Shown here one piece after another: positions 1 to 40,474 of a stretch of 64,000 nucleotides of DNA. The stretch spans positions 8,308,001-8,372,000 of the forward strand of contig CM097887.1 of NCBI GenBank assembly GCA_044892525.1, given 5' to 3'. Positions within the stretch are counted from its first letter, which is position 1; each line of letters opens with the position of its first letter. Origin of the DNA: Schmidtea polychroa. Taxonomy: Eukaryota. Below the pieces are notes generated by a model. The model was not told where the DNA came from. It made no database searches and saw only the letters and a list, made by a program, of their open reading frames with translations. The position numbers and the translations under genes were made by a program.

Positions 1-49
1 AGCAATAGCGAAAGCGGATAACGGAGATAACAACAATCAAGAACCGAAA

Positions 50-3000: not shown

Positions 3001-6000
3001 ATTCCATCTGCAACTGTTCGGAAAATCACTAGACGATAATGCAGACGTCGGGATAACACCCATGAGATTGGAAGAGACAAATGTATTAACAATGGCAGAA
3101 ACGTTGGGAAAACCGTTAAAAAGGAAAAGTAAAATTATTAAACCAACAAAAGGCAGTTTGAGTACTCCAAGTCCGAACAAAGCACCAAGTAAATCTAATG
3201 AAACTGAAGAAGTTGAAGAGATAATCCTGGAAGATAGTGACGATGAACCAGGAGAAAGATCACCGCTATTAGTGAGATGGCCGACAGGAGCCGAAATGTG
3301 GACTAATAACCAGCCATCAACGAGTTATCAACAACCAACGAAACTGAACATCAAAGAAATCATCGACAATACTACGGAAACCGAAACGGATGAACAATTC
3401 CAGAAGCAAAGAGAACCAACGAAAGTAACACCAGAAAGTCAAACCGACAAAATAATAGACGAATGGAATGAGTGGCTAAGAAATAACGATAGCTCATTAC
3501 CCAGAACGGATAACGAAAGAAATCCGAATTACGAAAATACCAGAGAAGCCGGAACGATGATGGAAAAACGGGCAAAAGGAAGACCGAAGAAACAAGGAGA
3601 AAAGTCTGAGTTCAAAACCAAAGAACAATTAAAGCAAGAACAAGGGCAAGTTCGATTAGAAAAATTGGATAAAATAGTATGGGATCTAAAGGAAGCCCAA
3701 CCAACGATCGAAAGAGGAGAAAAATGGATACGAGAATTGTTAAAAGATATGTTAATAATAACAAACCCACAACTTCGACGTTTGTGGCAACGGAAAGTAG
3801 CCAGTACGGAAGCTAGACAATTATGGCACACCATTTCGGGGATAATCCCAAAGTTAATCAAAGAGAAAACGAAAACCACCAAAACAGATTGGGACGAAAC
3901 AAAGAGAGTGATTGAGCAGCTCACGACAAATGCAAATGATGACGAGCATCACCTAGTGGTAATCACTTATTTGATGTATAATTTGATGGGACTAGCTGCG
4001 AGGAAAATACCAAATAAACAGTTTGCAAATCATGTGGAAATGACCGTTTCAATCATAGAGAATACTATTGAACCACATATTATTCGTGCCGGAGGATGGA
4101 AAAGACTTATACAAGCGCCACGGAAAAATGAGCAAGAAAGGTCGATGCAAGTTAGATTGAAAAAACTATTAAATGAACTAGAATGGGAACTACCAATGAA
4201 AGATCCCGCAAGCAGAAAAGCATCAATAAATTCGTTAATGATGACTATGATGATATGGATGTTGTGCACAAGTGGAGCAACAGGCTTCACCATCTACGAT
4301 TGTGATAATATGATAATGAGAGATAAATACTCATTGAGAGACATAGAAGAATGCAGACAAGCCTCACCCAACAAATTGGACATCGTGAGAACAAAAGTTA
4401 CTTACCATGTATATCAAGAATCAGATTTCATCAGAACGCAAGCAAGGGAATGCGTAGTATCAAAAAAGGTACTCGCATATTACTGTGGACAATATTCGTA
4501 TTCGACTCTTATACTACCCGGTCTGGATAAGGAAATCGTATCAATACAACGAGAGGATTGTAAAGAGCTATTTAGAACCGGAGCGCTAAAAATGCATAAC
4601 GGAGTGACAATTCACGGACAAACTGGAATGATTAAAACCGAAAGTGTTTACGTATCCGGAAAAGTAAAATCATCAGATGGGTCATGTAACGGGGGGACGT
4701 ATACGATCCGAGGCGAGGTAATATCGGGAGTTGTAGTGATCGAGTCTTACACGGTCGAATTAAAAGAATACGAAGCGCAATTTGACGCAAATAATTACCA
4801 AATGAAGACCAACCCAGCGTGTAAAGCTACAGAAAACGTATGCAGGACAGGAGTATCAACTATAATCTATGAAGCTAATACCCAAAAATGCCGACTCCAA
4901 CTGTTAAAAAGTGCTTTGTTCAATGAAGTAAAAGGAGAAATATATGAGAACGAGAACGACGAGGATGGAAACGACAGAGTGAGAATGCGAAATGGAAAAC
5001 CAATGCCACCATCTCCCAGAGAAAAGAGACTTTCAACGCAGAAGACACCAACAGCATTAATCACAGACGATCCAGATCTAGGTATGAGATTTATCAAAGA
5101 GAAAGAAACCACCAAATGTGACAGTATAGTATATAAAACCAATTACGCAGGTATCTACATGTCGAGACAAATAATCGATAGAGCAGTGGGAAAGATAGCA
5201 ACGGAGGACGTAAAACTGTACTTATATGCAAATAATAAAATGGATTTTCTATTTCATCGCGGACAAACGACCTTGCAAAAAGTATATTACGATCTGATAC
5301 AAAACGATTGTTCATTGAATAAAGAAATATTGAAAACAAAGCTAGCTATTGCGATAACGCACCCAGATAACACGATGCCATCACTCCCATTACCAGATGG
5401 ACACTTTGGTAGAATGGTAGGAGAAGTGATGTACACATACCAGTGTACCAAGACGTATGCACGAATGCCAGAAAAATCCATACTACCCGAAAAGAGATGT
5501 GCAAATGAATTAGAAATTCGTTATAAAGGACAAAATCGATTCGTCCAACCAGTCACTAGAATTATGAATCCAGTGGGTTTCTACCCAAATCTCTTTAACT
5601 GTTCTAATGCATACGGACCTTTGTATGAAAGACCCGATGGGAAATGGATGATGTTACCGGGAAAAACCATATCCGAGGAACCCAAGAAATTTGGATTAAT
5701 AGAACTCGCCACAGAGCTGGATTTCAAACCTATAGACGTGTCAAACGGTGGTATGTATTCCCCAGAAGACCTAGAAACAGCACGACTTAACGTACTCTTC
5801 CCAGCCAGACGAGAATCCATTTTGTCAAATATGGTCACAATAACTGGGGGCACAAACTATCAATCAGGCCCGAATTACGAGCTGCTATTATCACCAGACC
5901 ATTTTCAACAAGCTACGTCAAACATGATGAAAGCAATGTGGGGAAGATTCTTAGTTTTTGGACAAATGATGGCCGGGATATTAGGGATCATACTCATAAT

Positions 6001-9000
6001 TCAGATAGTCAGAGTAATACTAACACAAATGTTAGCTTGTTTCGATATATACAAGCGGGAAAAGAAAGTTAACTGGAAAATGATAGTAGGTTTCTTACCA
6101 TTTTTAGCTAAGACCATGGTATTACATGGCCACTCAAAAGACATTCATCGGATAAAGCGATTGATTAAAATATTAACAAAGATTAAAGGAACCGACGAAG
6201 AAGTAGGCAGACGATTCCGGAAAGCAATGTACGATGAAGCAACAAGACGACAATTGAAAAAGAATAAGCCAAAATTCTTGGACCGATTTAGAAGCCAATC
6301 ATCTAACAGCGATAGTGACGACGATGATAACGGGAACGATAAATGTCTTTATCCAAACAGAAACCCAAACGAAAAACCAATGGAAACGGCACCATATTGG
6401 GAAAAGGAAAAGACAAACACCTGGATCGCCAATGGAAGCTATATACCACCGGATATCGTGGGACCACAAGCAGCTTTGACCATGACACAAAATATGTATC
6501 CGCAATTACCGAGTCAACCCGGTATGCATTATATGCCAACACGACGTACCAAAAGTGTAGATCAAGCAGATGACGTAAGAACAATAGCAGCGATGAGTTT
6601 ACCTGGAGGTCCAGCAGTAACAGTTATGATTCAAATCAATGGTAAAGAAACCAATGCTATGATAGACACCGGAGCTAATGTATCAGCGATAGCGATTAAT
6701 CAAATTCCCAGTAAACACTGGAAAGATATCGAATCAACAACAATTCACATCATAGCATGTAGTAAAGAAACAGTGGACGTGGTCGGAAGATGGTGGACTA
6801 CATTGAGATACCAGGACAACGAAATTGAAACGTATTTGGCAGTAATACCAAAACTTAGCGTACCATGCATAATCGGAACGGATTTGATGCCAGAATTGTT
6901 AAAAGAAGTCGTAATTGACTTAACAACCATGTGTTTAAAAGACAAAACCGGTAGAATATGCAAAATGAATGCAGTCATCAGATGTCCAGAAAAAATAATA
7001 GTACCAGCAAAATCGCAGATGATTTGTCAGATAAAAGTGGATACGGGTATGGAAGGAGAAGTTATCTTTGAACCAAGCAAGTCATTTGAAAAGCGACGAG
7101 AATTACCACTCGCAAGAGAAATAATCACAATAAACCAAGAAGGAGTGATACCGCTCAACATCACGAATTTCGAAGAGGAAGACAAAATCATTTATGAGAA
7201 CGAAAAATTGGGAAGATTGACCCCAATGATGGACATAGAATTACCGAAAGTGACCAACGAGATGATCAAAGATGATGAATTATGGACAATAGATAGTATG
7301 TTGTTGACGAATGATGAAAAGAAAAAATTACACCGATTGTTGGTAGAATATAAAGATATATTCGCCATCTCAGATTTAGACTTGGGTACATGTGATGTTA
7401 CCTTACATGCAATACCACTCATAGACGAAACCCCAATTGCATTGAGACCATACAAGCTAGCAGAAATGCAGAAAGAAATAGCCGAAACAGAAGTACAAAA
7501 GATGCTAGACGCAAAAGTAATCGAACCAAGTTGCTCACCCTGGCAATTCCCAGTGGTCATGGTAAAAAAGAAAGATGGCACCCAACGATTCTGTATCGAT
7601 TATCGGAAGTTAAACGCAGTGACCAAGAGAGATACCTATCCATTGCCGGACATCAATGAGATGTTATTGATGTTGCAAGGGGCAGCATATTTTACTTCTT
7701 TAGATCTAAAAAGTGGATACTGGCAGATTAAAGTCAAAGATGAGGACAAAGAGAAAACAGCTTTCACGTTGGGACGAGATCTATATCAATTCAGGAAAAT
7801 GCCATTTGGACTGACCAACGCACCAGCATCATTTCAACGGTGTATGAACTTTGTCACCCATGGAATCAAACAATGTATGGTATATATTGATGATTTACTA
7901 ATCTATTCAGCGACATTTGAACAACATCTGGAAGATATCCGAAACGTATTTATTAGATTAAGACAGTGGAAACTCAAACTCAAACCATCAAAATGCGATT
8001 GGGCAAAGGAAAAAGTCACGTTTTTAGGACACATAGTGTCAGCTAAAGGAAAGGAGCCAGATCCAAGAAACATTGAGAAAATAAAAACATGTCCAGCACC
8101 GAAAACTGTCACCCAAGTTCAGGAATTTCTAGGATTATGCGGATACTATCGCAAATTTATCAAAAATTATGCAGGAATTGCAAAACCAATCCAGGAATTA
8201 GTAAAGAAGGATATTTCGTTCATTTGGGAAAAAGAACAACAACAGGCGTTCGAAACGCTGAGAGATAAACTAATCGAAGCACCTATCCTCGTACACCCAG
8301 ATTTTAAGAAGCCATTTCTATTGGCAACGGATGCAAGCGGGTACGCGGCAGGCGCGATTCTGGGACAATTAGACGATGAGGGAAAAGAGAGAGTAATCGG
8401 GTATTACAGTCGAACATTCAAAAAGCACGAAAAGAACTATTCGGTAACAGAACGAGAAGCATTGGCTATAATACAAGCTATCAAACACTTCCGATATTTA
8501 CTATGGGGACATGAGATATGCATAACCACAGATCATCAACCATTAGTGTGGTTAGGGCAACATAAAGAAGCGTCCAGTAGACTGATGCGATGGGCCATGC
8601 AATTGCAAGAATACTCCCCATTTATAAAATTCAAAGCGGGAAGAGCAAATGCCAACGCCGATTGTATGTCAAGATTTATTTTCCCAGATTTGGTGGATTC
8701 AGAAATGCAACGCATATGCTTAATAGTAGCGGAAGATTTGGATTTCTGTCAATTACGAAAGGACCAACAAGAGGACGCGGAATTAAAACAAATTATCGAT
8801 TATGTAAAAACCGGAAAGACAGAGGTATATGCGAAAGACCAAAAATTAAAAGAACATATGGATAAACACCGACACCGATATATTATAGAGAAAGATTGGT
8901 TGCTGATAATGGATGGGGAAAAACGATTAATGTGTATACCGGAAAACCGACGAAAAGAGTTACTAACGCAATATCACGATGGGAGATTGGGAGGACATAT

Positions 9001-10162
9001 GTCATCGAAAAAGACGTTAGCAAGAATGAAACAGAAATATTTTTGGCCTACGTTAACTGAAGATGTAACTGAATGGGTAAAAAATTGTCTAACTTGTGCA
9101 ACCAGGAAGAATACTGGATCGAAATGGAAAGCACCTTTAACGCCAATGCCAGTACCAATAGAACCAATGACAATGATATCCATGGACGTAGTTGGTCCAC
9201 TACCAGAGTCAGATAAAGGAAACGTTTACATTCTAGTGATCACAGACTTTCTTACGAAATTCCCAGAAGCATTCGCGATGCCAGACCAAAAAGCTAAAAC
9301 AATCGCAAAAATTTTGGTAGAAGAGATATGTTGCCGATATGGAACACCAAAACAAATCTTAACCGATCAGGGAACTAATTTTATGAGTGAGATAATGAGC
9401 GAAGTAACAAACTACTTCAAAATAGCAAAACTAAGAACATCTCCATACCACCCTCAAACCAATGGGATGACGGAAAGATTTAATGGAACACTTATACAAA
9501 TGTTATCAAACTACGTTGACCGTCACCAACGAGATTGGGACGAATATATAAACCTATGTCTTATGGCGTACAGAATGTCGATTCACGCATCAACGAAAAT
9601 GAGCCCATTCAAATTAATGTACGGAAGAGAATGTAATATGCCAATGGACCTAGAATACCAACCACCGATATCGCAGTATATGGAGATCGATGATTATGTT
9701 ACGAAATTCAAGGAAAGAATGCAAGAAATTTGGGAAACTGCGGGATTAAATATCAAGTTCTACCAGGAAAGTTATAAAGATTTACACGATCGAAAGAAAA
9801 ACGTGAAGCAACATACGTTCCAAACAGGTGATTGGGTAATGATAGAAACCCCGGAATTGATTCCAGGAACCACAAAAAAGTTACAACGCAACGGAAAAGG
9901 ACCATATGAGATCTTATTCGTAGGCGAAACTAATGTAAGAGTGAAATTGGTAAATAACCCCTTTACCAGACCAATATACGTAAACGTGGCACGATGCAAA
10001 TCAATTCCAAAAACAGCCACTAGTCAACCAGAAGGCCGTACATTAACCACACGTTCGCAAACCTACCGAATGAACATGATGCAACAACTCGCAGAACCGA
10101 TCACTGGACGATTAGGTATCCAACCATCAGAAGCGGAAAAGATTGTAAGAGGTAAAAATTAA
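50..10162 (+). CDS. Gag-(UBL x3)-(Bcl-2-like)-Env-Pol polyprotein, >3370 aa, 5'-truncated by the window (frame open back to position 2)
   Basis: CCHC knuckles 188-340; protease AMIDTGA (D at 6665); RT YIDD (7883-7894); RNase H TDAS/TDHQPL/NADCMSR (~8315-8670); integrase H-x6-H...CLTC, DVVGP, TDQG, NGMTERFN, GPY motif (~8975-9990). No stop codon in 10.1 kb. Confidence 0.97.
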   Translation: MNQFIPGAHQIFKPPQGRSNGNNGNRNNPNNENNFNNRRNMNDNKQCRTCGKPGHWDRDCYRNSNCNRCGRRGHTENVCQLRGCFNCGQPGHISRDCRERGQQQRPPQRNNNYIANPQRQSNPNEGKQMNVMQEISQMKQMMQQMMRPRQESAPQQTQNIRMMRSTENLNNYEVHQHVQEWQRLQAEEERIKQERNQQRQEQPLRINMMKLVKDMKSQYCYNYGKSPRVVPMTEPEKVKEITTEMKTENSTTISKGNQRIQKIFWKKIKDKIEKEHNKAKTETEDENNKSKEQTSQLNHQMLQESESEETTIFERKKLKRVPRMRNLQINMMKRTKDEASSDEEEDYVSSLGGEILQPNEISEPPKGEIKEEESGNEITSESEDEDIEIKLRKAREEAIKQVAEILPVVVRNQEFIDVIPFRRFVQKVMKLERNEKDLIPNEEKSIIKNYMEKMKQADTTRYVIKIGTSRGLERMWIKNTVTDELFDWIREHLGSSRKKEYLYQYQGEQIKPDMHLVDALIWPGETQILKLHKEKQPANLYDWAKDAKAEYDFNIKLKLEQIKQCTLRRNLDKLIKQIQEQVEDNWDLLITRRAPAMYELMSRLRDTEMLRMSDWRTINLIHKYGRLKETQPQRLEITIWLPNEEKRRIKMSNQSTVDDLVSKINQEITEKVRSESSDGMVDDVVMMYDKIILRAEDDTSLSEMGMWDNHQIIRIVPMDEFRTRDVTYQKEIRDRMKTLYQKSTEIIEIHQQWLKEKELQGKITKLNTRSCRRTPWERVWNAENKEWEIRKGIFVETDIGETESESEEEEEEPPEYEEEARGQTSDDESETDVTSESENEARHIHAMRKKEREYADMDGEEATEAREREEKERYKQLGDILAMGAKNQKRQVVALANIILKTSENIHNLRGMAKAIEEYRQYNEWYPEQLEQIIRKWRNQEWAQDTQERYHIRIKYPDKSIEELEVHPTTKIRELKKKLAYETPFHLQLFGKSLDDNADVGITPMRLEETNVLTMAETLGKPLKRKSKIIKPTKGSLSTPSPNKAPSKSNETEEVEEIILEDSDDEPGERSPLLVRWPTGAEMWTNNQPSTSYQQPTKLNIKEIIDNTTETETDEQFQKQREPTKVTPESQTDKIIDEWNEWLRNNDSSLPRTDNERNPNYENTREAGTMMEKRAKGRPKKQGEKSEFKTKEQLKQEQGQVRLEKLDKIVWDLKEAQPTIERGEKWIRELLKDMLIITNPQLRRLWQRKVASTEARQLWHTISGIIPKLIKEKTKTTKTDWDETKRVIEQLTTNANDDEHHLVVITYLMYNLMGLAARKIPNKQFANHVEMTVSIIENTIEPHIIRAGGWKRLIQAPRKNEQERSMQVRLKKLLNELEWELPMKDPASRKASINSLMMTMMIWMLCTSGATGFTIYDCDNMIMRDKYSLRDIEECRQASPNKLDIVRTKVTYHVYQESDFIRTQARECVVSKKVLAYYCGQYSYSTLILPGLDKEIVSIQREDCKELFRTGALKMHNGVTIHGQTGMIKTESVYVSGKVKSSDGSCNGGTYTIRGEVISGVVVIESYTVELKEYEAQFDANNYQMKTNPACKATENVCRTGVSTIIYEANTQKCRLQLLKSALFNEVKGEIYENENDEDGNDRVRMRNGKPMPPSPREKRLSTQKTPTALITDDPDLGMRFIKEKETTKCDSIVYKTNYAGIYMSRQIIDRAVGKIATEDVKLYLYANNKMDFLFHRGQTTLQKVYYDLIQNDCSLNKEILKTKLAIAITHPDNTMPSLPLPDGHFGRMVGEVMYTYQCTKTYARMPEKSILPEKRCANELEIRYKGQNRFVQPVTRIMNPVGFYPNLFNCSNAYGPLYERPDGKWMMLPGKTISEEPKKFGLIELATELDFKPIDVSNGGMYSPEDLETARLNVLFPARRESILSNMVTITGGTNYQSGPNYELLLSPDHFQQATSNMMKAMWGRFLVFGQMMAGILGIILIIQIVRVILTQMLACFDIYKREKKVNWKMIVGFLPFLAKTMVLHGHSKDIHRIKRLIKILTKIKGTDEEVGRRFRKAMYDEATRRQLKKNKPKFLDRFRSQSSNSDSDDDDNGNDKCLYPNRNPNEKPMETAPYWEKEKTNTWIANGSYIPPDIVGPQAALTMTQNMYPQLPSQPGMHYMPTRRTKSVDQADDVRTIAAMSLPGGPAVTVMIQINGKETNAMIDTGANVSAIAINQIPSKHWKDIESTTIHIIACSKETVDVVGRWWTTLRYQDNEIETYLAVIPKLSVPCIIGTDLMPELLKEVVIDLTTMCLKDKTGRICKMNAVIRCPEKIIVPAKSQMICQIKVDTGMEGEVIFEPSKSFEKRRELPLAREIITINQEGVIPLNITNFEEEDKIIYENEKLGRLTPMMDIELPKVTNEMIKDDELWTIDSMLLTNDEKKKLHRLLVEYKDIFAISDLDLGTCDVTLHAIPLIDETPIALRPYKLAEMQKEIAETEVQKMLDAKVIEPSCSPWQFPVVMVKKKDGTQRFCIDYRKLNAVTKRDTYPLPDINEMLLMLQGAAYFTSLDLKSGYWQIKVKDEDKEKTAFTLGRDLYQFRKMPFGLTNAPASFQRCMNFVTHGIKQCMVYIDDLLIYSATFEQHLEDIRNVFIRLRQWKLKLKPSKCDWAKEKVTFLGHIVSAKGKEPDPRNIEKIKTCPAPKTVTQVQEFLGLCGYYRKFIKNYAGIAKPIQELVKKDISFIWEKEQQQAFETLRDKLIEAPILVHPDFKKPFLLATDASGYAAGAILGQLDDEGKERVIGYYSRTFKKHEKNYSVTEREALAIIQAIKHFRYLLWGHEICITTDHQPLVWLGQHKEASSRLMRWAMQLQEYSPFIKFKAGRANANADCMSRFIFPDLVDSEMQRICLIVAEDLDFCQLRKDQQEDAELKQIIDYVKTGKTEVYAKDQKLKEHMDKHRHRYIIEKDWLLIMDGEKRLMCIPENRRKELLTQYHDGRLGGHMSSKKTLARMKQKYFWPTLTEDVTEWVKNCLTCATRKNTGSKWKAPLTPMPVPIEPMTMISMDVVGPLPESDKGNVYILVITDFLTKFPEAFAMPDQKAKTIAKILVEEICCRYGTPKQILTDQGTNFMSEIMSEVTNYFKIAKLRTSPYHPQTNGMTERFNGTLIQMLSNYVDRHQRDWDEYINLCLMAYRMSIHASTKMSPFKLMYGRECNMPMDLEYQPPISQYMEIDDYVTKFKERMQEIWETAGLNIKFYQESYKDLHDRKKNVKQHTFQTGDWVMIETPELIPGTTKKLQRNGKGPYEILFVGETNVRVKLVNNPFTRPIYVNVARCKSIPKTATSQPEGRTLTTRSQTYRMNMMQQLAEPITGRLGIQPSEAEKIVRGKN
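188..340 (+). other. Three tandem CX2CX4HX4C zinc knuckles (nucleocapsid)
   Basis: CRTCGKPGHWDRDC, CNRCGRRGHTENVC, CFNCGQPGHISRDC. Confidence 0.97.
1430..3091 (+). other. Three ubiquitin-like domains in the polyprotein (~1430-1645, ~1952-2200, ~2897-3091)
   Basis: The third aligns by eye to ubiquitin: LEVHPTTKIRELKKKL...FGKSLDD vs LEVEPSDTIENVKAKI...FAGKQLED. The second has I.LP..KRRIKM...STVDDLVSKI...DDTSLSEMGM. The first is SUMO/UBL-like (YQYQGEQIKPD) and weakest. Confidence 0.65.
3770..4108 (+). other. Bcl-2-like domain in the polyprotein
   Basis: BH2-like PHIIRAGGWKRL (GGW at 4091-4099), preceded at the expected spacing by a helix pattern matching the BH1/alpha5-6 region (TKRVIEQLTTN...HHLVVITYLMYNL...HVEMTVSII). 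The NWGR motif is not conserved. Confidence 0.65.
4226..6130 (+). other. Chuvirus/mononega-like class III fusion glycoprotein (Env) with internal signal peptide and C-terminal TM
   Basis: Hydrophobic signal (LMMTMMIWMLCTSGATG) then FTIYDC..YSLRDIEEC, DGSCNGGTY, CDSIVYKTNY, YANNKMDFL...YYDLIQNDC.L.KEIL, GEVMYTYQC, CANEL..F.QP.TRI, GMYSPEDL...FP.RRESIL; TM ~5948-6022. The motif series matches my recollection of chuviral glycoproteins. Confidence 0.85.
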
Positions 10163-18107: not shown

Positions 18108-18669
18108 ACTCTAACTCAAACATTTGTGTTATTATATGTGGAAACTTTTATTGTATGTACAAACTATCACCTTAAGTGATACTTGCTTGATCTTGCTTTG
18201 ACCTTGATCTTACAATAAAAATTTTATCATTGTTGTATAATTTTCGTGTTCGTGTTATATTTTTTTTTGAATGAATGAATTAAGTTAATTATGCAATTGC
18301 GGGACGCAATTTTGATGGGTCCCCGAGTGATTTGTTGGGCTGAGTCGAAAATTTAATCGTTGAAAAATAAGAAAGTAGGGAAGTAGAACATTAAGAAAAA
18401 TAAAAATAAAATAAATAAAATCAGAAATAAAATAGAATAAGGTATAAGGAAAATAATAATTAAGACATAAGAATTAAAACAAAAAATAAAATTAAGAAAA
18501 GATTAAAATAGAACAAGTTGACAAATAAATAAAGAGGAATTCAAGAAATAATAAGGAAATTAAGGAAATAAATAGAAAAACATATTAAAAATAAAGAAAA
18601 TAAGGAGAAAACAACCTAAAAACAAGAAAATTATATTAAATTAATAGAAATAAGCGGTACTCAACTCTG

Positions 18670-18703
18670 ATTGGTCCGCACAAATAAGAATTTGATATAT
18701 ATA
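18670..18703 (+). promoter_or_regulatory. LTR core promoter: inverted CCAAT box (ATTGG 18670) and TATA (TATATATA 18696-18703)
   Basis: Both motifs are conserved in the solo LTR (25166, 25192); a conserved AG|GTAAGA donor lies ~50 nt after the TATA. Confidence 0.55.
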
Positions 18704-19220
18704 CAACTACCAAAAACATTAAATTTACTGTTAACCCCGAGCATTTCATAGGTAAGAAAAAATGTTTACTGTTTCTACTGTTAACCCCGAGCATTTCATA
18801 GACATCTACAACTCACGGAGACTTATTTCAAGGATCAGCAATACAAGTAGAGCAACAGTTAATTCGAAAAACTTCACAGCAATTCGAACTCAGTCACAGC
18901 AATCGACATTCGACGAATTATCATCAGACTAATTTGGAACGACTAACGTTAATTTTCCGATTCAGCCTAATTCCATAGTAAGGGATTTTTATTTATGATA
19001 TTGTTTTTCGAAGTTAATAGTAAATATGTATATTTAATGAGTAATTAAACTTTTAAATTTAACCAGACTCTCTTTTCATTTGATCCTGAATAACGATTTT
19101 GATAAAGTAAATAATTTAAATGTTTAAAAGTATTTATTGGTAACAGGTGAACTCTTACATAATTTTTATGGATATTTATTTTGAAGTGATAGTTTTATGA
19201 TTTCTAATATTAACGAGAAA

Positions 19221-19350
19221 CGTGGCGTTGAGATACTCCATGTCATGGTGTGAGGTGCCTTCGGGAGCTCAGCCGGTGGACATGGAGTATTTCAATCACG
19301 CAGCTAGATTGGGCCGAAATGTGAAGGCTTCTTCACGGGTCCAATTGCTG
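19221..19350 (+). ncRNA. Conserved structured RNA element (two adjacent hairpins) in the LTR
   Basis: 17-bp stem 19228-19244/19279-19295 with 5 compensatory pair changes versus the copy at 25740-25807; cUUCGg apical loop; second hairpin 19301-19350. The strand is assumed from LTR orientation and G-U pairs. Confidence 0.75.
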
Positions 19351-21209
19351 AAGGACTTAAAATCTGTCAGAGTACCGAAATATAGACCGAAAGGAAACCT
19401 TATGAAATTTTCGAAAATAGGATATGTGCTTCACAGCGACTGAGGGAGTTCTCCTATTAACTCTGTATTGTCCAGAGTCGTCTTATAAGACATTCATGCC
19501 ACTTCTGTCTATAAATCCGAACTTACCATGTGGGGGAAGATACCATTAAACATCCATCGCTGGTTTTTCTAACATATCGAGAAGTTGAAATTGCATTCGG
19601 TAGATTTTTGAAAAAGTAAATCTAATTTAGGTCATCTCTTTCAGATGCGACATCCAAATCTTAGCATATGATGAGGAATTTACAATAAAGGAAAAGTAAA
19701 ACATAAAACCACAATAATACTGTATTCAATCACATATATTAACAAAATCTGGTAATACCCATTGAATAATTTTCATGCTGTCGCGTCGAAATATCCACTA
19801 CTGAAATATGCTTCATAGAGTCTAGTTGGCTGGTTCGTAGAGATCTTCCATCGTTCAAAAGCATCCAATATTGAGGAAATTACGAGTCGTAGTAAATAAA
19901 TCCAACATCATAAGCTCAGATGGGAATCGACACGCGATGTAACATTTGCAGTTCGCTCAGTACGGTTGATAGTTACAGATAAAATTTCCATCGAATAGGC
20001 ACCCATACATACAGACATACTGCTAACATAACTATGAGTAGCGTCATCCGGTCAGAAATATGCATGAGAAACAGCAGAATCATTCCGAATGCCTCTCACC
20101 GCAGGGAATGCCGCCATGTGTCACCCTCTCTAAGATTCTTAGTGTGTGAGTAGTAATCAGTGGTCCTATTAGATAATGCTGACATGAGATGTGACTTCCA
20201 GATGACTGACTCTTAAATTTCACTACTGATAAAGGTCATTCGTACCACTAAAAAGATAAGCCAAAATAACCAGTAACCGACTACTAAGATAAGAGACTCT
20301 CTAAAGTGCACTCATTAAAGATAATTTTGCTTAAATTAAATATTCTAAATAAAAATCGAAATTGTTGAAGGGGTATTTTAATTAATAACCGAAAATTCAA
20401 ACCAAACTTTATAACTAAACCATAGGAAGTTTCACCTAAGTGTTGTAGAGGTTTATCGTAATTCTGATTAGATGTTACAAATAATAGTAGTAGCCTTTGA
20501 GCCAAATTTAAATTAACTAAAGCATCCACAGGAATTTTTGGGTTATAAAATAGCTAGTAATATTGTACTTAAATTTCTCATATTCCATGTAAACTACGTA
20601 TCGCAATAGAAAACTAAATCCGATAACAAATTATTATGTAATTACAATGTTTTTTTACGATGCCATATTTCTACGACGATATCACCGTATGGTATGGATA
20701 AGGGGTGATCATAAAATAGTGACGTATAGTTTATACGAAATTACGAGTTGTTACTTATTCCGCTACTCGAGGTAAGGGTGCAAGTTTTTACTAGTCGCAT
20801 TTGGTCCAAAAACCTTATTTTGCATTAGAATAACAACAAATAATCAGCGAAATTTAAACGAAGTGTAGTATAGTGTATTTGTAATGAAATAGGTTTATTC
20901 ACTCCGGCATGAACAAATCCGTAAATTGCCTTTATGTGCGATAGATAGAAATCCAACTCGAACGCGATAGACGAAAATTAAAATTTTTACAAATAATTTG
21001 CATTCGTCAGGGAAGCAATCAGGGCGTTGAGGAATAATTTTTGTAAAGGATACGTAAAATATTAGTAATCAAGGGTGAAGGGAAGGATCCTGTTTCATCG
21101 ACTCGTCTTGTTTTCTTCCAGCACTAAGTATCCAATAGCGAATAAACCGTATATCTGATCCGAAATTTTTAGATATAGTCACCATAGTTTTCTTCTTTAG
21201 CCATCCATT

Positions 21210-21962
21210 ATGTTATCAAACAACAAATCAGCTTTACGTCCCTGCTTCTCCTGCTCAGATAAAAATGCAGTGATTAAAGATCTTCAAGCCCAGATCGGTC
21301 GATATAAACGAAAAATCGACGAGCTGGAAGGGACATGGTTTAGTCCCGCTCGGATGAAGGAGATCCAAAAGAAGCTCGATCGTAGCGAGCATTGCCGGGA
21401 CGCGCTAATATCTGAGAGCCGTGCCCAAAGAAGTCTAATCAGAGAACAATCCGAGGCACTGCATAAGGTTTACGTGCAGGCGGCTACAACCCGAAAGATC
21501 GTGCAGATTCCCATCCGAGAGGCCGATGACATCTTTCCGCCTCATCACAACCTTTCCTCGAATCCATCTCCACCGTTCAAGAGACCGTGCCGAGACTGCG
21601 TCGAAACCGAATGGTCCCCCAAGCGTCCAGATGTTGTCATCACGGGTACCAGTAAGCCCCCCACTGCTAGTCCATCTGTATCAGTCACCCTTCTACAAGT
21701 GGCATCTTCAAACAAACCCAAGCGCAAACAACTCTCTCGAGCAGAGCGCAAGAAGAGACAGCGCGAGCGCGCCACTGCAAAGCCAAACATCCCATCAACA
21801 GAGGACTCAACCAACGGTGGTAACTCTCACGTGTCCATCGACCTAACAACGGGACCCTCAGCGCGAATCATATCAGCCGCTGGCGTAAGGTGGGAAGAGA
21901 ACGCTTCCGAGTTTTTCAACCTCGACGAATTATTCGCCGACACTGAATGGGAGAAACAATAA
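21210..21962 (+). CDS. LTR-encoded 250-aa protein (CxxC, coiled coil, Arg/Lys-rich motif, acidic C-terminus)
   Basis: Intact in both LTR copies, ~84% aa identity by manual count with many synonymous changes; polypyrimidine splice acceptor TTTTCTTCTTTAG just upstream; AATAAA at 22086. Confidence 0.85.
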   Translation: MLSNNKSALRPCFSCSDKNAVIKDLQAQIGRYKRKIDELEGTWFSPARMKEIQKKLDRSEHCRDALISESRAQRSLIREQSEALHKVYVQAATTRKIVQIPIREADDIFPPHHNLSSNPSPPFKRPCRDCVETEWSPKRPDVVITGTSKPPTASPSVSVTLLQVASSNKPKRKQLSRAERKKRQRERATAKPNIPSTEDSTNGGNSHVSIDLTTGPSARIISAAGVRWEENASEFFNLDELFADTEWEKQ

Positions 21963-22085
21963 AACCCCAGTGGCGGTCAGGATGAGGAACAAGGATCCGA
22001 TCTATGTTGATTATGATGTTTTCTCTTCTTTCGACAAACATTAGTAAAGTGTACAGCTGAATCCTGGTGTCATAACGTTGAAATT

Positions 22086-22091
22086 AATAAA
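22086..22091 (+). terminator. Polyadenylation signal of the LTR transcription unit
   Basis: AATAAA followed by a TTGTTGTCTT GU-rich element, conserved in the solo LTR (~28351). Confidence 0.6.
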
Positions 22092-22226
22092 TCTTGTTGT
22101 CTTACACGTTTTCGTTCATGAATAATTAGACTTTAATTAAGTGGGTTGAGTAGAGAACCCGCAAGATCTAGTGAGAATTTCCCAATTTGCATTCAGCGAA
22201 TTCCTGATAGGTGGTTGTGTAAGGAA

Positions 22227-22410
22227 ATGGACGTAAGCCCTTCTATCGGCAGTCGTGAATGGGAAGTCGAGGCCTCAGCAAGGAGTAGTTTTAAGGCAGA
22301 AGCTCACCTGCTTGCTGGCGTCTCGCCTGCATAGTGCAGTACCAACGTGAAGTGATTCACGGGCACTATGTTGGAAGAAAGTTATGTGGGGTTTCACTCC
22401 AGGTTGACAA
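22227..22410 (+). ncRNA. Near-invariant structured block near the LTR 3' end (U5-like region)
   Basis: 184 nt with 2 differences versus 28491-28674; helices CATAGTGC/GCACTATG, CGTGAA/TTCACG capped by GNRA (GTGA vs GTAA), CAGCAAG/CTTGCTG. Confidence 0.5.
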
Positions 22411-22812
22411 ATCGGTGGCACCTTTTATTCGAGATGGACAATCAACCCTTAGACCCGCCAACATGGTAGAATGGTCAGCCGAGGTGTGACCCCAACATCA
22501 ACAACAATAACGAATTCCAAACAATATAACTTTATTGAATAACGATTGTAATGACACAAATTACTCAATGCAACTCAAACGTATTCGGGTGCTTATTAAA
22601 ACCCTTTGGAAGGAACTTTGGGAACACTTTAATTATACGACCACTCAAGATGACATTGAAAAATTACAAACAAACGAGAGTTTACATTACGTAACTAAAT
22701 GTAAAACGATTGTAGAAACTATTGTAAATAAATTCGGTCAAAATACACATGTCAATTTTAAGAATGATTTTAAAATACCATTTTTTAATGTTATGGATTA
22801 GATGTTTTTATT

Positions 22813-24824: not shown

Positions 24825-25732
24825 TGTTGGGCTGAGTCGAAAATTTAATCGTTGTAAAAATAAGAAAGTAGGAAAGTAGAACATTAAGGAAAATAAAAAT
24901 AAAATAAAGGAAATCAGAGATAAAATAGAATAAGATATAAGGAAAATAATAATTAAGACATAAGAATTAAAACAAAAAATAAAATTAAGAAAAGATTAAA
25001 ATAGAACAACAAGTTGACAAATAAATAAGGAGGAATTCAAGAAATAATAAGGAAATTAAGGAAATAAATAGAAAAACATATTAAAAATAAAGAAAATAAG
25101 GAGAAAACAACCTAAAAACAAGAAAATTATATTAAATTAATAGAAATAAGCGGTACTCAACTCTGATTGGTCCGCACAAATAAGAATTTGCTATATATAC
25201 AACCACCAAAATCATTAAATTTACTGTTAACCCCGAGCATTTTATAGGTAAGAGAGAATGTTTAAAGTTAACTGTTAACCCCGAGCATTTTATAGTAAAG
25301 ACATCCACAACTTACGGAGACACATTCAAGAATCAGAGACACTAACCGAGCAACAGTTCATTCAGAGAATTCCTAGCTACTTACAATCAATTCGAAGCTA
25401 AGAGATTTGTCACAGCAATCGATATTCCATCAACAAACTCAGTCAGAGCGACTAACATTAATTTTTCGATCCAGCCTAATTCGACAGTAAGGGATTTTAT
25501 TTCATTTATTTATTTAATTTCGAAGTTAACCGTACTATGTATCTTTAATGAATAATTAAAAATTTTTGAAAAATAACATTGACTCTCTTTTCATTTGATC
25601 CCAATAAATGATTTCGATAAAGTAAATAATTTAAAAGTCTAAAAGTAGTTATTAGTAATAAATGAGCGATTGCACAATCTTTATGATTACTGTTATGAAA
25701 TACCTTTTTATGATTTTTAAAGTAACGAGTAA

Positions 25733-25862
25733 CGTGGAGTTGAGGAACCGCAGATCATGGTGTGAGGTGCCTTCGGGAGCTCAGTCGGTGGATCTGAGGT
25801 TCTTCAATCACGCAGCTAGATTGGGCCGAAATGTGAAGGCTTCTTCACGGGTCCAATCGCTG
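25733..25862 (+). ncRNA. Second copy of the covarying double-hairpin RNA element
   Basis: Stem TTGAGGAACCGCAGATC/GATCTGAGGTTCTTCAA; apical part and second hairpin nearly identical to 19221-19350. Confidence 0.75.
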
Positions 25863-27473
25863 AAGGATTGACGCAAAATTAGACAAAATGAGAAAAACGA
25901 TTTAGATTAGTGACATGAATTTAGAACGAATACCGAAATGTACAGTGATTGAGGTGGACGTTACATCTGCAGTGAGTTTATTTCCATCCTGAGGAACCAT
26001 GCGATCCTGAGACTAACTCTTCGCTAGCATCGTCGTAATCAGTCCAATTTGACTCTAACATCGTACTAAATTCCACACTTATGTTCGGTTAATTAAAAAT
26101 TAGGACGAATTCTATATTTCTTCATTTTTCAGTTAAAAATAAATAAAGCTCTAATGTATAAATAACATTTATTAAAATTAAAGTAAAAACATAACTCCTG
26201 GTAATCATTTTATTTAACTTATACTTACTAGTAAACTAGAAATACCCGTTCAGCAGTTTCCACACCATCACATCAGGATGTCTATCATCGAAATAATATC
26301 CACCTAGAGTAGGGAGTTGAATTGTAGAACTTTTTCATCAAGTAATATCTAGAATTGAGGAAAATCTCCAAACATAGTAAATAATTCCAAAAAATCCAAG
26401 CGAGAGAATTGTCATGAAAATTGAACGGTTGAGAATTTGTCCATATGATGTGCGAGTGCAGATAAATTTTCCATTGAGTAGGCACACTAGCATGACTATG
26501 GGTAGCAACACCAGCGTTAGAATTACCTGAGAAATACACACGAGGATAGATGATAATCACGCAGCGAGTGCATGGCTAATCATAGTAATCCGTGTTCCAT
26601 ATGTCGTATCTAGCATAGATTCTAGCATTACGACTGATAACGGCGGGATATTGATTAACCGTCATAGTAGCTCCATGAATAGCAGATGATGGCTCTCATA
26701 GATTTTGTGTTGAAATGCGATTAACGAAAGATAACTACGTGCAGTAACATTTCACAAACCACTCATCTGGAAAATTTTCGAATGAATTAAATTTAACTGA
26801 TAATAGAATGACTAAATGGATAATTATAGACAATTATAATTTGAATTAAATAATTTAAAGGATAACCGAATGACCAAGTGCGTAATGGTAGACCAGTATG
26901 AGTTAAACTAAATAATTTAAACGGTAACGGGCATTGTTAAATTAAGTGGGGATAATTGGGACCTGCTAACTAATGATGGAAAACTAAAGCCAAGCATTAA
27001 TGATAGAGTCGGAAATTGTCAATTCGAGTGTTACGAGTGATCTAACGAACAACTAATAGTAATTTTGAATAATAGGTAAATTAATTCGAGTTCGTGAATA
27101 ATAACATTTTGAATAACCATGGTAAATATTTTAAATGATAATTAAGAGTGTTTTAAAAGCTACTCAAATGTACCATTTAACAATCAGATATGTTTATAGA
27201 CCAACAATCATAGGGCAATTTAGTAATTAATAAACCTTCTCAATTTCTAAGTTAAAGATCTATTTGCATTCGTCAATGCTATCCCTTTAATGAACTCTTC
27301 GTTAAATAAAAGCGATGTTACAAAATCGTCTAGAAGGGAAATACATTCCCCTACTTGTTCCGAATACCCGCTAACTGCTGACAGTGACTAACCAACCTCA
27401 TTCGACCTGCGATCTTATTCATATAAAAGATTTACTAAGTCGTTATAGTTCCTTATTTTACAGTTGATCAATT

Positions 27474-28223
27474 ATGCTGCCAACTACGAAATCCACCTTA
27501 CGTCCTTGCTTCTCTTGCGCGGACAAAAACGCGATTATAAAGGATCTTCAGGCCCAGATCGGGCGCTACAAAAAGAAGATAGATGAGCTGGAGGGCACTT
27601 GGTTTACCCCCGCTCAGATGAAGGAGACTCAAAAGAAGCTCCATCGTAGTGAGCATTGTCGGGACGCGCTCATCTCTGAAAGCCGTGCCCAGAGAAGCCT
27701 TATTAAAGAACAGTCAGAAGCGCTGCACAAAGTCTACGTGCAGGCAGCTACCACACAAAAAATCGTACAGATTCCCATCAAAGAGGCCGATAACATCTTC
27801 CCGCCTCATCATAACCCCTCATCAAATCCATCTCCACCGTTCAAGAGACCATGTCGAGACTGCGTGGAAACCGAACTGTCACCTATGCGACCGGACGTTG
27901 TCATCACAGGTACTAGTAAGACCTCAACTACTAGTACCTCTGTATCCGCTGCGCTTCAGCAAGTCGCATCTACGAGCAAACCCAAGCGCAAACAATTATC
28001 TCGTGCGGAACGTAAGAAGAGACAGCGTGAGCGCGCATCCACAAAGCCAAACATCCCATCGATAGAAAACTCAACCAGTGGTAGTAGTTCGCGCGTGTCC
28101 ATCGACTTGACAGTAGGACCCCCAGCGCGCATCATCTCAGCAGCTGGCGTGACATGGGAGGAGAACGCCTCCGAATTCTTTAATCTGGATGAGTTACTCG
28201 CCGACACCGAATGGGGAAAGTAA
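27474..28223 (+). CDS. LTR-encoded 249-aa protein, second copy
   Basis: Colinear with 21210-21962 without internal indels; acceptor TTATTTTACAG ends at 27463. Confidence 0.85.
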   Translation: MLPTTKSTLRPCFSCADKNAIIKDLQAQIGRYKKKIDELEGTWFTPAQMKETQKKLHRSEHCRDALISESRAQRSLIKEQSEALHKVYVQAATTQKIVQIPIKEADNIFPPHHNPSSNPSPPFKRPCRDCVETELSPMRPDVVITGTSKTSTTSTSVSAALQQVASTSKPKRKQLSRAERKKRQRERASTKPNIPSIENSTSGSSSRVSIDLTVGPPARIISAAGVTWEENASEFFNLDELLADTEWGK

Positions 28224-28490
28224 GAGAACCACAACGGCATTCCCGAAGCCTGTTGCGAAGTCGAACTACATTTGTTGGGGAGTTTTTCTTTTCCTTCGAC
28301 AAACGTTCGTGATGTGTACAGTTGAATCCTTGTGTCTAAATGTTGAAATTAATAAATTTTGTTGTCTTATATATTTTCGTTTATGAATAGCCAGACTTTG
28401 ATTAAATAGGTTAAATAAAGCGTCTTCGAGACCTAAGGAATAATCCCCGATTTGCTTTCGCGAAATTCTGACTAACGGTGGTGTAATGAG

Positions 28491-28674
28491 ATGGACGTAA
28501 GCCCTTCTATCGGCAGTCGTGAATGGGAAGTCGAGGCCTCAGCAAGGAGTAGTTTTAAGGCAGAAGCTCACCTGCTTGCTGGCGTCTCGCCTGCATAGTG
28601 CAGTACCAACGTGAAGTAATTCACGGGCACTATGTTGGAGGAAAGTTATGTGGGGTTTCACTCCAGGTTGACAA
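28491..28674 (+). ncRNA. Second copy of the near-invariant U5-like structured block
   Basis: 182/184 identical to 22227-22410. Confidence 0.5.
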
Positions 28675-29934
28675 GGCGGTAGCACATTTTATTCGAGATG
28701 GACAATCAACCCTTAGACCAGCCAATATTGTAGAGTAGTCAGCCGAGGTGTAACCCCAACACCAAAATCACGATCTTAGAACATGCACAGAAACTCATCA
28801 AAATTGTTACAGAGATCCACACGGATGCAAGAGTCAGGTGAATACCAATCTATACGGAGATCCAGCTATTTCTGGCAATTGCATCGATAATATCAAAAAT
28901 TCTAGGTATTGGCTCAAATAACAAAAAGCCTTGCAAACCAAGGTCAGGAAATTTTAGCGAAAGAGATTTCAAGAATTGAATATGAGTCGGAGATCTCAGT
29001 AGAAAAAATGAGAAATCTTTTTTTTCAATGTGCTTTATTTTATTGATTGCATTCATTTGTAAAGTGGCTATTTAATATTATCCTTATTGTTTGACTTTAG
29101 TTTTTCGAAAATTTATTTCAGTTGCATTCAAGTTAATAGTAAATAAATGTAAAATCAAACAAAATGTCAAATCAGTTTTTCATAATATTGGAACCATTTT
29201 AAACCTAAAAGAACATGAGTTGATTATAAATTATTAGCGACTCTATAAAATTTATATCTGTGTAATATAAATGACTCTGACATAATATATTAGTGTAATC
29301 GCGAGTGATTCGAATGAAAGCATTTATCATAAAATCTCGTATTTCTAGAAATCTATAAAACTTGTATTTCGTGAAAGTTTTTAATATAGAAGTCCCAGGT
29401 AGATAGCACCAATTAAGTGATAAAGTAAAATAAATCGCAGAACCAAAGACGCTTGCGACGGGCGTTTAATGACTGATTATGATTATTATGTGTGGTTGCT
29501 ATTCGAACGTGAAATTAATGAAAGTGTTGATCAGATAAGCAATTAGAAGTGAAAGATTCTCCACACATGTAACCACCACATGTAACCTTTTCTTACTTCC
29601 TGTCTTAATTACTTTGATTCAATTGATGTATTATCGTGAATTTGATTTGGCCCATTTACACAATGTTAAAATCCCCTGTGTTTCAACATAACATTATACT
29701 AAATTATTTTTAGTTTTCTAATTGTACAAATCTATTCAATTTCATAAATCGTGATCTTAAGTATTTTTTAACTTATATTTAAAAAAATAAAATCTCTAAA
29801 AAATTAACTTATTTCTATTATTTCACTATTTTTAAAAAAAAAATTTAAAATTCAATTTGTTTTAAGAATAATTAAGAATTTGTTTTAATAATAATTTTAA
29901 TAATTTCTTTAGATTTAAATTTTTACAAAGAGTT

Positions 29935-31786
29935 ATGTCTAAAAAATCTATTGAAACAAAATATGCTAAGCGGAAACTGCTTAAAAAATATTTAGAAGTG
30001 GATGAAAAGGTTTTTAATATATGTTTAAATTAACATTTAATTATGTATTTAGATAAATATATTATTTGCGATTGGTACTAGTTCCATCGAACAAAGAATT
30101 TCTTATATGATAGCCAATTATAAAAAACAGGAATTTAATCTACAAGATTGTAATGACGATCTTAGTCAGCATAAAGTGTGATAGTAGCGATAACTTTTAA
30201 TAGTTTCATTTAATTGTAATTAGGAGCTTTTGAAATGGATAATTAGTCAACAATCACAAAATCAAATGGAGAAAGATGAAATTTTGCGAAAAGTGTTGCA
30301 GGTATTTGCAGTTTATCATTGATGATCGAAATTAAAATTGTTAATCAAGGAACCATTTTCCAAAGAAACGAGTCGAGTTGAGCGACTACAAGAAGAGCTT
30401 AATTCCTATCAAAACGAGCAATTGAAAACTCCTATCAAAGTCCAACAGAAATTATCTGCATTCTCGCCCTCCGTGACTCCAATGAAGAATTCAATGATGG
30501 AGAAGATCATGAGCCAATCATTGAATGAATCCTTATGCACCAGCATGGATTCCAGCATGGATTGCCCCACCTCATTAACAATACCATCGATCAAGTTCCG
30601 TCTGTCCGAGCAGCACCAATGGGAGGATAAAAGCGCCTCAAATGAGATCTGTAATGATTGCATGCAGAAAGTGTCCCCATTGGAACTCAACGACAAGAAA
30701 CTGCACCATTGCTCGCGCTGTGGGTTCCACATGCACTCGTCATGCATTAGATTGTCCGCAAGGCGCAAGCTGTGCATCCCGGTGCACAAGGCGGTGGTGG
30801 CAGCCAATGCTGGGGCGCCCGTGAGGGTGACTGGGGAGCGCACGGTTGACATAAGGGACCTGTTGCGGTATGGTGACAAGCGGGATGCTGCTGCTTGCTA
30901 CTGGAGTGCTAGTGAGTGCTCCATGCAGCCTGCGGTGCCCTCGGTGCTGCTGTTGCTTATGCACCACGTGCACACATTCGGGTACGGCCATACCAATCTG
31001 TACCGCAACAGCGCTATCGGCAACCCCGGCGGCACGCACGGGTTCAGCAAGGCTGTCAAGGAATTGGCTGAGAAATTGATGAAGGGCAAGGCCAAGGCCA
31101 TCGGCAGGTTTGATATCGTCACCGTGTGTGACTGCATGAAGCTGTTGCTAGGCAGCCTCAAGGATCCCCTGCTCTCTGATGCTAATATCAATCAGTTCAT
31201 GGCGGCCACCGCCACCGCTGGCACCGCCTATCCAGGTAGCACTAGCAACGGCACTAGCAACGGCACCAGCAGCACTAGCAACGGCACCAATTTCACTGAC
31301 CTCCTCAGGAACATCCTAAACACCAGTCACAGGAACAAAGCCACCATCGCATATTTACTTGTCCATTTAAAGGTAACCATGGCGCCCATTATCTTATTAT
31401 TTTTATTGGTTAATGATTATTTGTCTTCATTGTTGATTTTTTATATTATCGATTTATCCCATTGATTATCCCCACTGATCAGATATTGATTGATTATAAC
31501 ATTTAGGTTGTTGCTGGTTACAGGCGGGGAATGCGTCGGCATGATGTGAATGAGTTAGCAAAAGTTTTTGCTCCTATCCTAATCAGTGAGGAGGCAAGAG
31601 GTAAATATTTGCCAGCGGCTATTGAAGTAATTCTATTGGTTGAATTATGTTGTCATTTGATTGGTGTAATTTATTCAGCTTCTAGAAGGCCTCATCAAAG
31701 TTGAATATGAAATATTCATCGATTATATCACAGATATTATGCTGTTCCAACACGTGACTCAGTTGATGAGGGATCCTTCTGAATGA
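29935..31786 (+). CDS. RACGAP1: Host RacGAP1/MgcRacGAP/CYK-4-like protein (coiled coil, C1, RhoGAP); predicted exons 29935-30009, 30053-30175, 30224-30301, 30350-31372, 31507-31626, 31679-31786 (~508 aa)
   Basis: All five GT-AG introns (43, 48, 48, 134, 52 bp) keep one frame; C1 H..C..C..C..C..H..C..C; GAP NLYRNS (Arg finger), VKELAEKL, LKDPLL, NKATIAYLLVHL, ELAKVFAPIL. Orthology is inferred from architecture and motifs. Confidence 0.8.
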
Positions 31787-40192: not shown

Positions 40193-40474
40193 TGTTAAAG
40201 TCCTATGTCAAGACAGGAAAGCAACCGGACCAATTGTGCGAGGTGTCACTAGCTAGCAGCATCTGAGTTGTCGTATAATTAAAGTGTTCCCAAGTGCTAT
40301 TCCTTCCTAAGGGTTTTAATAAGCACCAGAATACGTTTGAGTTCCATTCTATTATTGAGTAATTTGTGTCATTGTAATCGTTTGGAATTCGTTATTGTTG
40401 TTGAATAAAACCCGATCGGAGTCAGACAGTAGTTATTGATTTGATAAATTACCGACAACCAACTAACCCCAACA
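40193..40474 (+). repeat. Possible short LTR remnant
   Basis: TGTT...TAACCCCAACA (same last 11 nt as the solo LTR), internal AATAAA; no TSD found. Confidence 0.3.

Follow-up and report, generated by a model that had tools for sequence, protein, structure and literature searches.

A covarying two-hairpin RNA element in the predicted LTR intron of a Burro-type Ty3/gypsy retrotransposon from Schmidtea polychroa: a candidate Rev/Rex-type response element

Introduction

In the complex retroviruses a structured RNA is paired with a small basic protein, as in the Rev/RRE, Rex/RexRE, Rec/RcRE and Rem/RmRE systems covered in the accessible text of one account (PMC12789967). The CTE of MPMV, the RTE of IAP and the MTE of MusD are cis-acting RNA structures that are required to export full-length retroelement RNA (accessible portions of PMC12789967 and PMC12786077). 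In the LTR of foamy viruses the major donor lies upstream of the poly(A) signal and a regulating structure masks the donor (PMC3694450, accessible text). The Ty3/gypsy element Cer1 of Caenorhabditis elegans encodes CERV, which is made from a spliced message and is needed to export unspliced RNA; CERV is a large multi-domain protein with exons shared with Gag, and in the accessible text of the Cer1 paper, where the terms 'RRE' and 'response element' do not occur, an RNA partner is not defined (PMC10309623). How Ty3/gypsy elements with introns bring unspliced RNA past splicing, polyadenylation within the 5' LTR and nuclear retention is poorly known.

The giant planarian elements Burro/GYPSM1 exceed 30 kb and have long LTRs, ankyrin and MATH-TRAF cargo and, between gag and pol and in frame with them, an env-like region (PMC6431247). 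An LTR intron, an LTR gene and an RNA element are not described in the accessible part of that account; all three are present, as predictions, in the retrotransposon considered here. This lies in the window, by which we mean the whole stretch of 64 000 nucleotides of S. polychroa DNA that was analysed (contig CM097887.1, positions 8 308 001–8 372 000). The original prediction had proposed an RRE- or TAR-like RNA element at 19221–19350; its account did not include the conserved poly(A) signal upstream, the exchange between families or the replacement by unrelated hairpins. The features of the retrotransposon, and of a nearby solo LTR, are on the + strand.

The host retrotransposon

The element is situated in a 3' LTR of 4165 bp (18333–22497), bounded by TG and CA, which belongs to a Ty3/gypsy element of ~30.4 kb with a 4-bp target duplication (TCAA). 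The 5' LTR is upstream of the window (locus L121), the two copies being 26.2 kb apart with 4.2 kb of LTR to be added; next to it comes a primer-binding site with complementarity to the host tRNA-Pro. A stop-free part of the polyprotein (3379 amino acids; 2–10138) contains zinc knuckles, a viral fusion glycoprotein, protease, RT, RNase H and integrase, and ankyrin and RING-MATH ORFs stand between it and the 3' LTR. The length of more than 30 kb, the multi-kilobase LTRs, the single polyprotein, the env-like region between gag and PR-RT-RH-IN, and the ankyrin and MATH-TRAF cargo all match, as judged from the sequence, a Burro-type giant Ty3/gypsy element. A diverged solo LTR (24825–28761; 4-bp target duplication CCAA) carries a second copy of the RNA element, recognized by sequence match (copy B, 25733–25862). 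We refer to the flagged copy as copy A.

Some further observations were made on this element and its surroundings. No polypurine tract precedes the 3' LTR (18290–18332); a conserved non-purine stretch and a small hairpin are found there instead, as at every internal junction seen. The usual spacer between an LTR and its primer-binding site is 0–3 nt, and that of families II–V is longer, with 7 nt between the LTR end and the tRNA-Pro site (L121, 5243–5267). At another locus (L132), tRNA-Pro(TGG) genes are arranged in a large tandem array that repeats every 475 bp. A 49-nt inverted repeat has its arms at 22567–22615, just outside the LTR, and 40300–40348, 17.7 kb apart, and is possibly the remnant of a DNA transposon. 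The stretch 30326–31465 is probably a host gene exon with C1 and RhoGAP domains.

Structure of the RNA element

The element consists of hairpin 1 (19221–19300) and hairpin 2 (19301–19350), which abut directly and are each supported by fold and covariation. The outer pairs are exact, with C19221–G19300 opening hairpin 1 and C19301–G19350 closing hairpin 2. Hairpin 1 is built from a 4-bp base, a 2-nt bulge, an 18-bp stem, an internal loop with AU facing GGUG, and an apical part in which a bulged stem, with a G·G mismatch inside, is capped by C(UUCG)G. The basal stem had been given as 17 bp; it is real, and comprises 18 pairs once the first G·U is counted. In its upper 12 pairs the sequence is free, with compensation, and the length is nearly fixed. 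Hairpin 2 has a CAGC/GCUG base, a GGGCC/GGUCC stem, a G-N-A-A bulge (19316–19319), a 7-bp stem and a GCUU loop, and is still recognizable in distant cassettes that bear another hairpin 1. The fold z scores are −6.5 for copy A (19221–19350) and −6.1 for copy B (25733–25862), with 0 of 200 shuffles in each case.

Conservation begins abruptly at a single-stranded 5' flank, GAGNAA (19215–19220), as indicated by the alignment of copies. The invariant unpaired positions are A19245, U19246, G19255, G19267, G19278, G19316, A19318, A19319, G19327, U19329 and U19330. A conserved unpaired GGUG (19275–19278) faces the invariant A19245–U19246 in the alignment of 28 copies; A19245, U19246 and G19278 are conserved in all 28, and G19275 and G19276 in 27. 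On this pattern the GGUG loop is a candidate protein-binding loop. The conserved G·U pairs, the retention of the UUCG cap in 25 of the 28 representatives and the better folding of the + strand in all 28 point to a sense RNA rather than to DNA.

Several resemblances were considered and set aside. The internal loop is 2 × 4 rather than the 2 × 3 of the GNRA 11-nt receptor. The A, B and C boxes of Pol III and snoRNA genes were found in none of the 28 copies, and there is no hinge between the hairpins. In 18 of 28 copies, 13 of 15 letters in the 3' arm of the apical stem agree with the tRNA-Pro primer-binding site; the arm was not retained as a mimic of that site, being paired and showing compensated changes in family III-a while the primer-binding site is unchanged.

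Covariation and conservation

DNA searches yielded ~1330 candidate copies, of which 40 were scored per search. Pattern searches gave 216 matches for the apex, 771 for hairpin 2 (up to three mismatches) and 791 for a G-rich hairpin 2, in overlapping sets, and none for the reversed controls. In the sampled loci 171 matches reduced to 82 distinct sequences and then to 29 representatives less than 96% identical to one another; the alignment holds 28 of these, one with a different hairpin 1 having been left out.

The five two-sided changes reported between copies A and B are present: 19233/19290 (A–U to G–C), 19234/19289 (U–A to A–U), 19237/19286 (U–A to C–G), 19241/19282 (U–A to G–C) and 19242/19281 (G–C to A–U); so is the single mismatch, at 19238/19285. 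The additional copies do not break the pairing. Across the 28 representatives it is kept in 96.6% of cells, compared with 33–51% in slid registers, and 19 of the 48 pairs change on both sides (90 such cells; 0 of 500 shuffles), including 14 of the 22 lower-helix pairs of hairpin 1. The apex and hairpin 2, which had been described as nearly invariant, also covary when copies from the whole genome are compared. Parsimony on a tree built from the flanks only gives 50 double changes, 42 single changes that keep the pair and 42 steps that involve a mismatch, counts that recombination may inflate. Median identity to copy A is 87% for the element, and 61% and 58% for the 150-nt flanks (27 comparisons). 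Shuffled flanks give 58% and 53%, so the real flanks are near the shuffled level, in agreement with the poor alignability noted originally. The pairs of highest mutual information with pairing letters fall within the structure, and among the 28 representatives mutual information revealed no pseudoknot, kissing or tertiary covariation. Taken as evidence from sequence comparison, these results indicate that a two-hairpin RNA structure is under selection in hundreds of retrotransposon copies. We regard this structure as secure and its function as a separate matter.

Rfam gave no match at gathering score in the window; its matches to the LTR and to 12 other loci are all weak and unrelated. When metagenome and viral contigs were scanned for exact patterns, the element was not found. 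Six of its short motifs occur in none of the papers searched, and no description of it was found in the main texts covered, including the accessible text of PMC8532177, PMC8797187, PMC11410931, PMC12786077 and PMC8579622. Whatever its mechanism, and with no match in Rfam, the element is an uncatalogued structured RNA family.

The original prediction allowed for a protein-binding or a catalytic RNA. The conserved unpaired nucleotides are consistent with the former. The many invariant unpaired nucleotides and the spacer stem of fixed length would suit an RNA of a new class that cleaves itself or is catalytic in some other way, but we consider this reading very unlikely. The original prediction recognized no ribozyme consensus, and no Rfam ribozyme matches. 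CUGANGA occurs in only 6 of the 28 copies and GAAA in 18, tertiary covariation is lacking, hairpin 1 is replaceable, and a cut close to the 5' end would harm the genomic RNA. The hammerhead in particular was rejected, its core not being formed: the CUGANGA-like tail is paired, the wrong base follows and stem I would have one pair.

The same alignment bears on whether hairpin 1 is the precursor of an intronic microRNA or other small RNA. Its intronic location, arms of ~35–40 nt with 11 pairs below a plausible cut, and the different long hairpins that other lineages carry in this position would suit such a precursor. Yet in 28 copies the predicted seeds fall into 18 5p and 12 3p variants, while the loop is nearly invariant; the cap is UUCG, the 3' flank is paired, and the basal UG, apical UGU and CNNC motifs, read by eye on copy A, are out of place. 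Pol III boxes are absent (0/28) and an internal TTTT is present in 12 of 28. We therefore hold a small-RNA precursor to be improbable, as the original prediction did for a microRNA.

The predicted transcription unit

The signals around the element are predicted to follow the order promoter, donor, poly(A) site, element, acceptor, ORF, second poly(A) site. The putative promoter (18670–18703) combines a reverse CCAAT box (ATTGG) with TATATATA, and similar motifs are present in other families. The predicted intron that holds the element is 2.2 kb long (18978–21200), with a GTAAGG donor and an acceptor formed by a pyrimidine tract and AG. Between the donor and the poly(A) slot there is a conserved TTTCATTTGAT-like motif (19074–19084), which was found in 20 of 24 representatives, with 0.06 expected. 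The intronic poly(A) hexamer slot (19142–19147) is degenerate in the flagged copy and holds an intact AATAAA in copy B (25657–25662).

These signals were counted on 24 long-LTR representatives; three copies with short LTRs and a divergent one were excluded. The divergent copy has the ORF but neither the donor nor the hexamer, and its inclusion would bring the denominators for the donor and AATAAA to 25. A GTAAG donor stands ~220 nt (206–247 nt) upstream of the element in 21 of the 24 (0.85 expected) and AATAAA ~75 nt (66–95 nt) upstream in 17 (1.3 expected). The intronic AATAAA is followed within 8–16 nt by CA in 10 of 17 cases (2.4 expected), and TTATG-rich repeats after it number 43 against 7.3. 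In the flagged young subfamily the upstream AATAAA is absent (0 of 12 distinct contexts). Among 25 LTRs examined, 18 have a visible ORF start, and in 17 of these an AG acceptor stands a short distance ahead of the ATG. A second poly(A) signal is located at 22086–22091, a hexamer being found 116–142 nt after the ORF in 13 of 18 LTRs with the ORF.

Following as it does the donor and the poly(A) site, and lying inside the predicted intron, the element would be carried only by unspliced, uncleaved RNA. In all 30 loci that were located through the ORF exon alone the intron end is still present, which is what copying of unspliced RNA only would predict, and no intron-less LTR was seen in this sample of 30. 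Contigs from four sequencing runs behaved like DNA, with no joint at the long intron, and are uninformative on splicing. A second intron, a GT-AG mini-intron of 50 nt (18752–18801), is predicted between 26-nt direct repeats ending in AG (18726–18801), an arrangement also seen in families II and V. It is precisely absent from some genomic copies, the joined form being present in 5 of 27 scored loci, a product that repeat slippage would also yield; the arrangement fits intron gain by tandem duplication.

The position of the element bears on the proposed likeness to TAR. On this reading the element, TAR-like or an attenuator, would control how Pol II elongates beyond the intronic poly(A) site, and the LTR protein would be the transactivator. 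The element does lie just after a promoter-proximal poly(A) site, and the LTR protein combines a basic motif with an acidic tail. However, the element is ~500 nt downstream of the predicted TATA box and the start predicted from it, unlike TAR at the extreme 5' end, so the TAR-like position fell away and we judge elongation control to be quite unlikely.

The LTR-encoded protein

The ORF after the predicted intron (21210–21962) encodes a protein of 250 amino acids that is a candidate regulator. It has a predicted coiled coil (residues 13–98), a basic helix (168–189) and an acidic-aromatic tail. In the window protein 10 of 18 residues of the basic helix are Lys or Arg, five of them Arg, and the motif, which could also act in localization, is present in 21 of 21 aligned homologues. 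Homologues occur in families I, II, IV and V of the same genome. The basic motif could instead be a plain nuclear localization or DNA-binding helix. The conserved acidic tail (21890–21960) resembles an activation domain and also, loosely, the PAM2 motif, with no Pfam match.

No homologue was found among near-length proteins or solved structures, all Atlas matches scoring below 0.85, and the model of the protein, of low confidence (pLDDT 62), gave no fold match at an E value of 0.001. In none of the searches did the protein resemble Rev, Rex or a CERV-like fold. A leucine-rich export pattern shared by the 12 family II/IV proteins was not found.

Other families and exchange of cassettes

Primer-binding sites numbered 1058, and 40 among the matches listed were traced upstream, known copies of the window's family being skipped. 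These 40 comprise 18 sites of family I, three of family II, 12 of family III and seven of family V. The element model matches three of three family II members and six of 12 in family III at full length, with one further family III copy matched weakly. It matches no sampled LTR cassette of family I or V.

Family III is an abundant and very young family of ~14–15 kb elements with LTRs of 1.6–1.7 kb that are 99.9–100% identical (~14 kb at loci L165, L174 and L204–L221). In five of five elements with both LTRs found, pol and the LTR ORF are absent, and a Gag ORF is present in four of the five; family III is a non-autonomous, Gag-only family. At least four different hairpin cassettes occupy the one LTR slot of this family. 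Subfamily III-b, with a 94% identical Gag, has an unrelated 92-nt hairpin in the same slot (678 matches), for which no autonomous carrier was found among the first 100 matches listed, in which two widely spaced pairs were checked. One family III LTR matches a long LTR over the element only (96% in 135 nt), which suggests transfer between families. Family III keeps or re-acquires the element. AATAAA precedes the cassette in each of the eight family III LTRs examined, and six of the eight lack a canonical hexamer downstream of it.

Families I and V have their own hairpins in the slot, and that of family V covaries at 7 of 31 pairs. Its cassette shows a GGUGG loop similar to that of the element; in spite of this visible resemblance neither model detects the other, and the cassette was not accepted as a homologue. 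Family V has two structured intronic cassettes, of which the first is a long-range helix starting ~30 nt after AATAAA (L176, L167 and L213). Family I LTRs contain two ORFs, one ending in what appears by eye to be an AT-hook-like motif and one a shorter homologue of the LTR protein (L166, L201 and L202). Three protein types accompany three cassette types, a correspondence that gives weak support to a functional match because shared descent would also produce it.

In two other readings the LTR protein takes no part. In the first, the element would act in cis on processing or export and host factors alone would read it; it would be either CTE-, RTE- or MTE-like or a regulator of splicing and polyadenylation acting with U1 at the nearby donor. 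The donor-then-poly(A)-signal order shared with foamy viruses (PMC3694450, accessible text), the fixed spacing to donor and hexamer, the retention of the element where the LTR protein is missing and its replacement by unrelated hairpins would all agree with this. Lineage-specific cassettes are nevertheless less expected for one host receptor, the basic LTR protein is left unexplained, the CTE motif AAGACA is in none of the 28 copies, and Rfam gives no match. We consider dependence on host factors only to be unlikely, while giving it some weight.

In the second, the element is a packaging or dimerization signal bound by the nucleocapsid of Gag, which would mark unspliced read-through RNA. Nucleocapsid prefers loops with unpaired guanosines such as GGUG. 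The conserved unpaired guanosines of the element include this very loop, the location downstream of the donor would confine the element to unspliced RNA, and Gag-only elements keep it. Against this, the same Gag accompanies unrelated cassettes, the element is ~3.2 kb upstream of the primer-binding site, it has no palindromic loop (the cap being UUCG), and covariation indicates neither a pseudoknot nor a kissing contact. Another structured RNA, close to the end of the LTR (22231–22385; ~28495–28650 in the LTR of copy B), is common to families II–V; in 14 sequences two-sided changes affect 16 of its 32 predicted pairs, and it has no Rfam match. This more widely shared structure is a candidate packaging, initiation or major-donor structure, and is a better packaging candidate than the two-hairpin element. 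A packaging role for the latter is accordingly rather doubtful.

Proposed function

An export signal in the intron was part of the original prediction. The splice signals conserved around the element agree with the location, and an RRE-like role is the leading hypothesis. In our view the element may be a Rev/Rex-type response element for the LTR's own basic protein, a reading that we hold tentatively and at somewhat less than even likelihood. By default the LTR transcript would either end by cleavage at the intronic poly(A) site or become a spliced message for the 250-residue protein, and neither product would contain the element. The protein would oligomerize through its coiled coil and its basic helix would bind the conserved loops, with the sequence-free stem serving as a spacer. 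Binding would then favour full-length genomic RNA that keeps the intron, reads through the 5' LTR and is exported, and Gag-only elements would keep or re-acquire the tag in order to borrow the LTR protein in trans.

A Rev/Rex-like role is favoured by the structure with invariant unpaired purine-rich positions, by its fixed place after the donor, and usually after AATAAA, ahead of the acceptor and second poly(A) signal, and by family III, which is without pol and the ORF and still carries the element in 6 of 12 sampled members. It is opposed by the export signal not being conserved, the orphan hairpin of subfamily III-b, the flagged subfamily without the upstream AATAAA, the mutual blindness of the element and family V models, and the dissimilarity of the protein to Rev, Rex and CERV. 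As regards the features of a response element, the RNA is a stable conserved structure with purine-rich non-canonical loops; the leucine-rich CRM1 export signal, a defining feature, was not found conserved in the LTR protein (12 family II/IV proteins). With this feature failing and binding only predicted, we do not class the element as an RRE.

It is possible, and we put this forward with more reserve, that each Burro LTR is a self-contained circuit of an intronic tag and its reader protein, in which the tags are lineage-specific swappable cassettes captured by Gag-only parasites and solo LTRs could supply the regulator in trans. The tag and its reader would then represent a defined RNA–protein pair of the Rev/RRE type in a Ty3/gypsy element. 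If the response-element reading is right, Rev-like control would have arisen independently outside the Retroviridae, and non-autonomous elements would clearly have captured a cis-acting element. The fold, the invariant loops, the candidate protein and the natural swap variants make the question testable in a model animal group.

Comparison with known systems

The systems outlined in the Introduction differ in how closely they approach this arrangement, and the comparisons given here are with the accessible text of the cited accounts. The foamy virus LTR (PMC3694450) shares the order of donor before poly(A) signal, whereas the element described here is a separate cassette after the poly(A) site and before the LTR gene. 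The MPMV CTE, IAP RTE and MusD MTE depend on host factors and are not in a 5' LTR intron, and the CTE motif is absent from the element (PMC12789967, PMC12786077). Cer1 (PMC10309623) is a precedent for a gypsy-type element that has such a regulator, translated from spliced RNA; in the window's element the regulator is predicted. With the Rev/RRE type the element shares a structured RNA that would be confined to, or would act on, intron-containing RNA, together with a small basic protein whose message is predicted to be spliced; the RexRE, like the element, is located in an LTR (PMC12789967). The differences are that here the host is a Ty3/gypsy element, that the RNA and the protein gene are both inside the LTR, that the RNA is 130 nt long, that there is no sequence or model match and no conserved leucine-rich export signal, and that binding and export are predictions in this case only. 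A tag that would be present only in unspliced, uncleaved RNA, in an intron whose removal would yield a basic protein, nevertheless follows the logic of Rev, Rex and Rem (PMC12789967).
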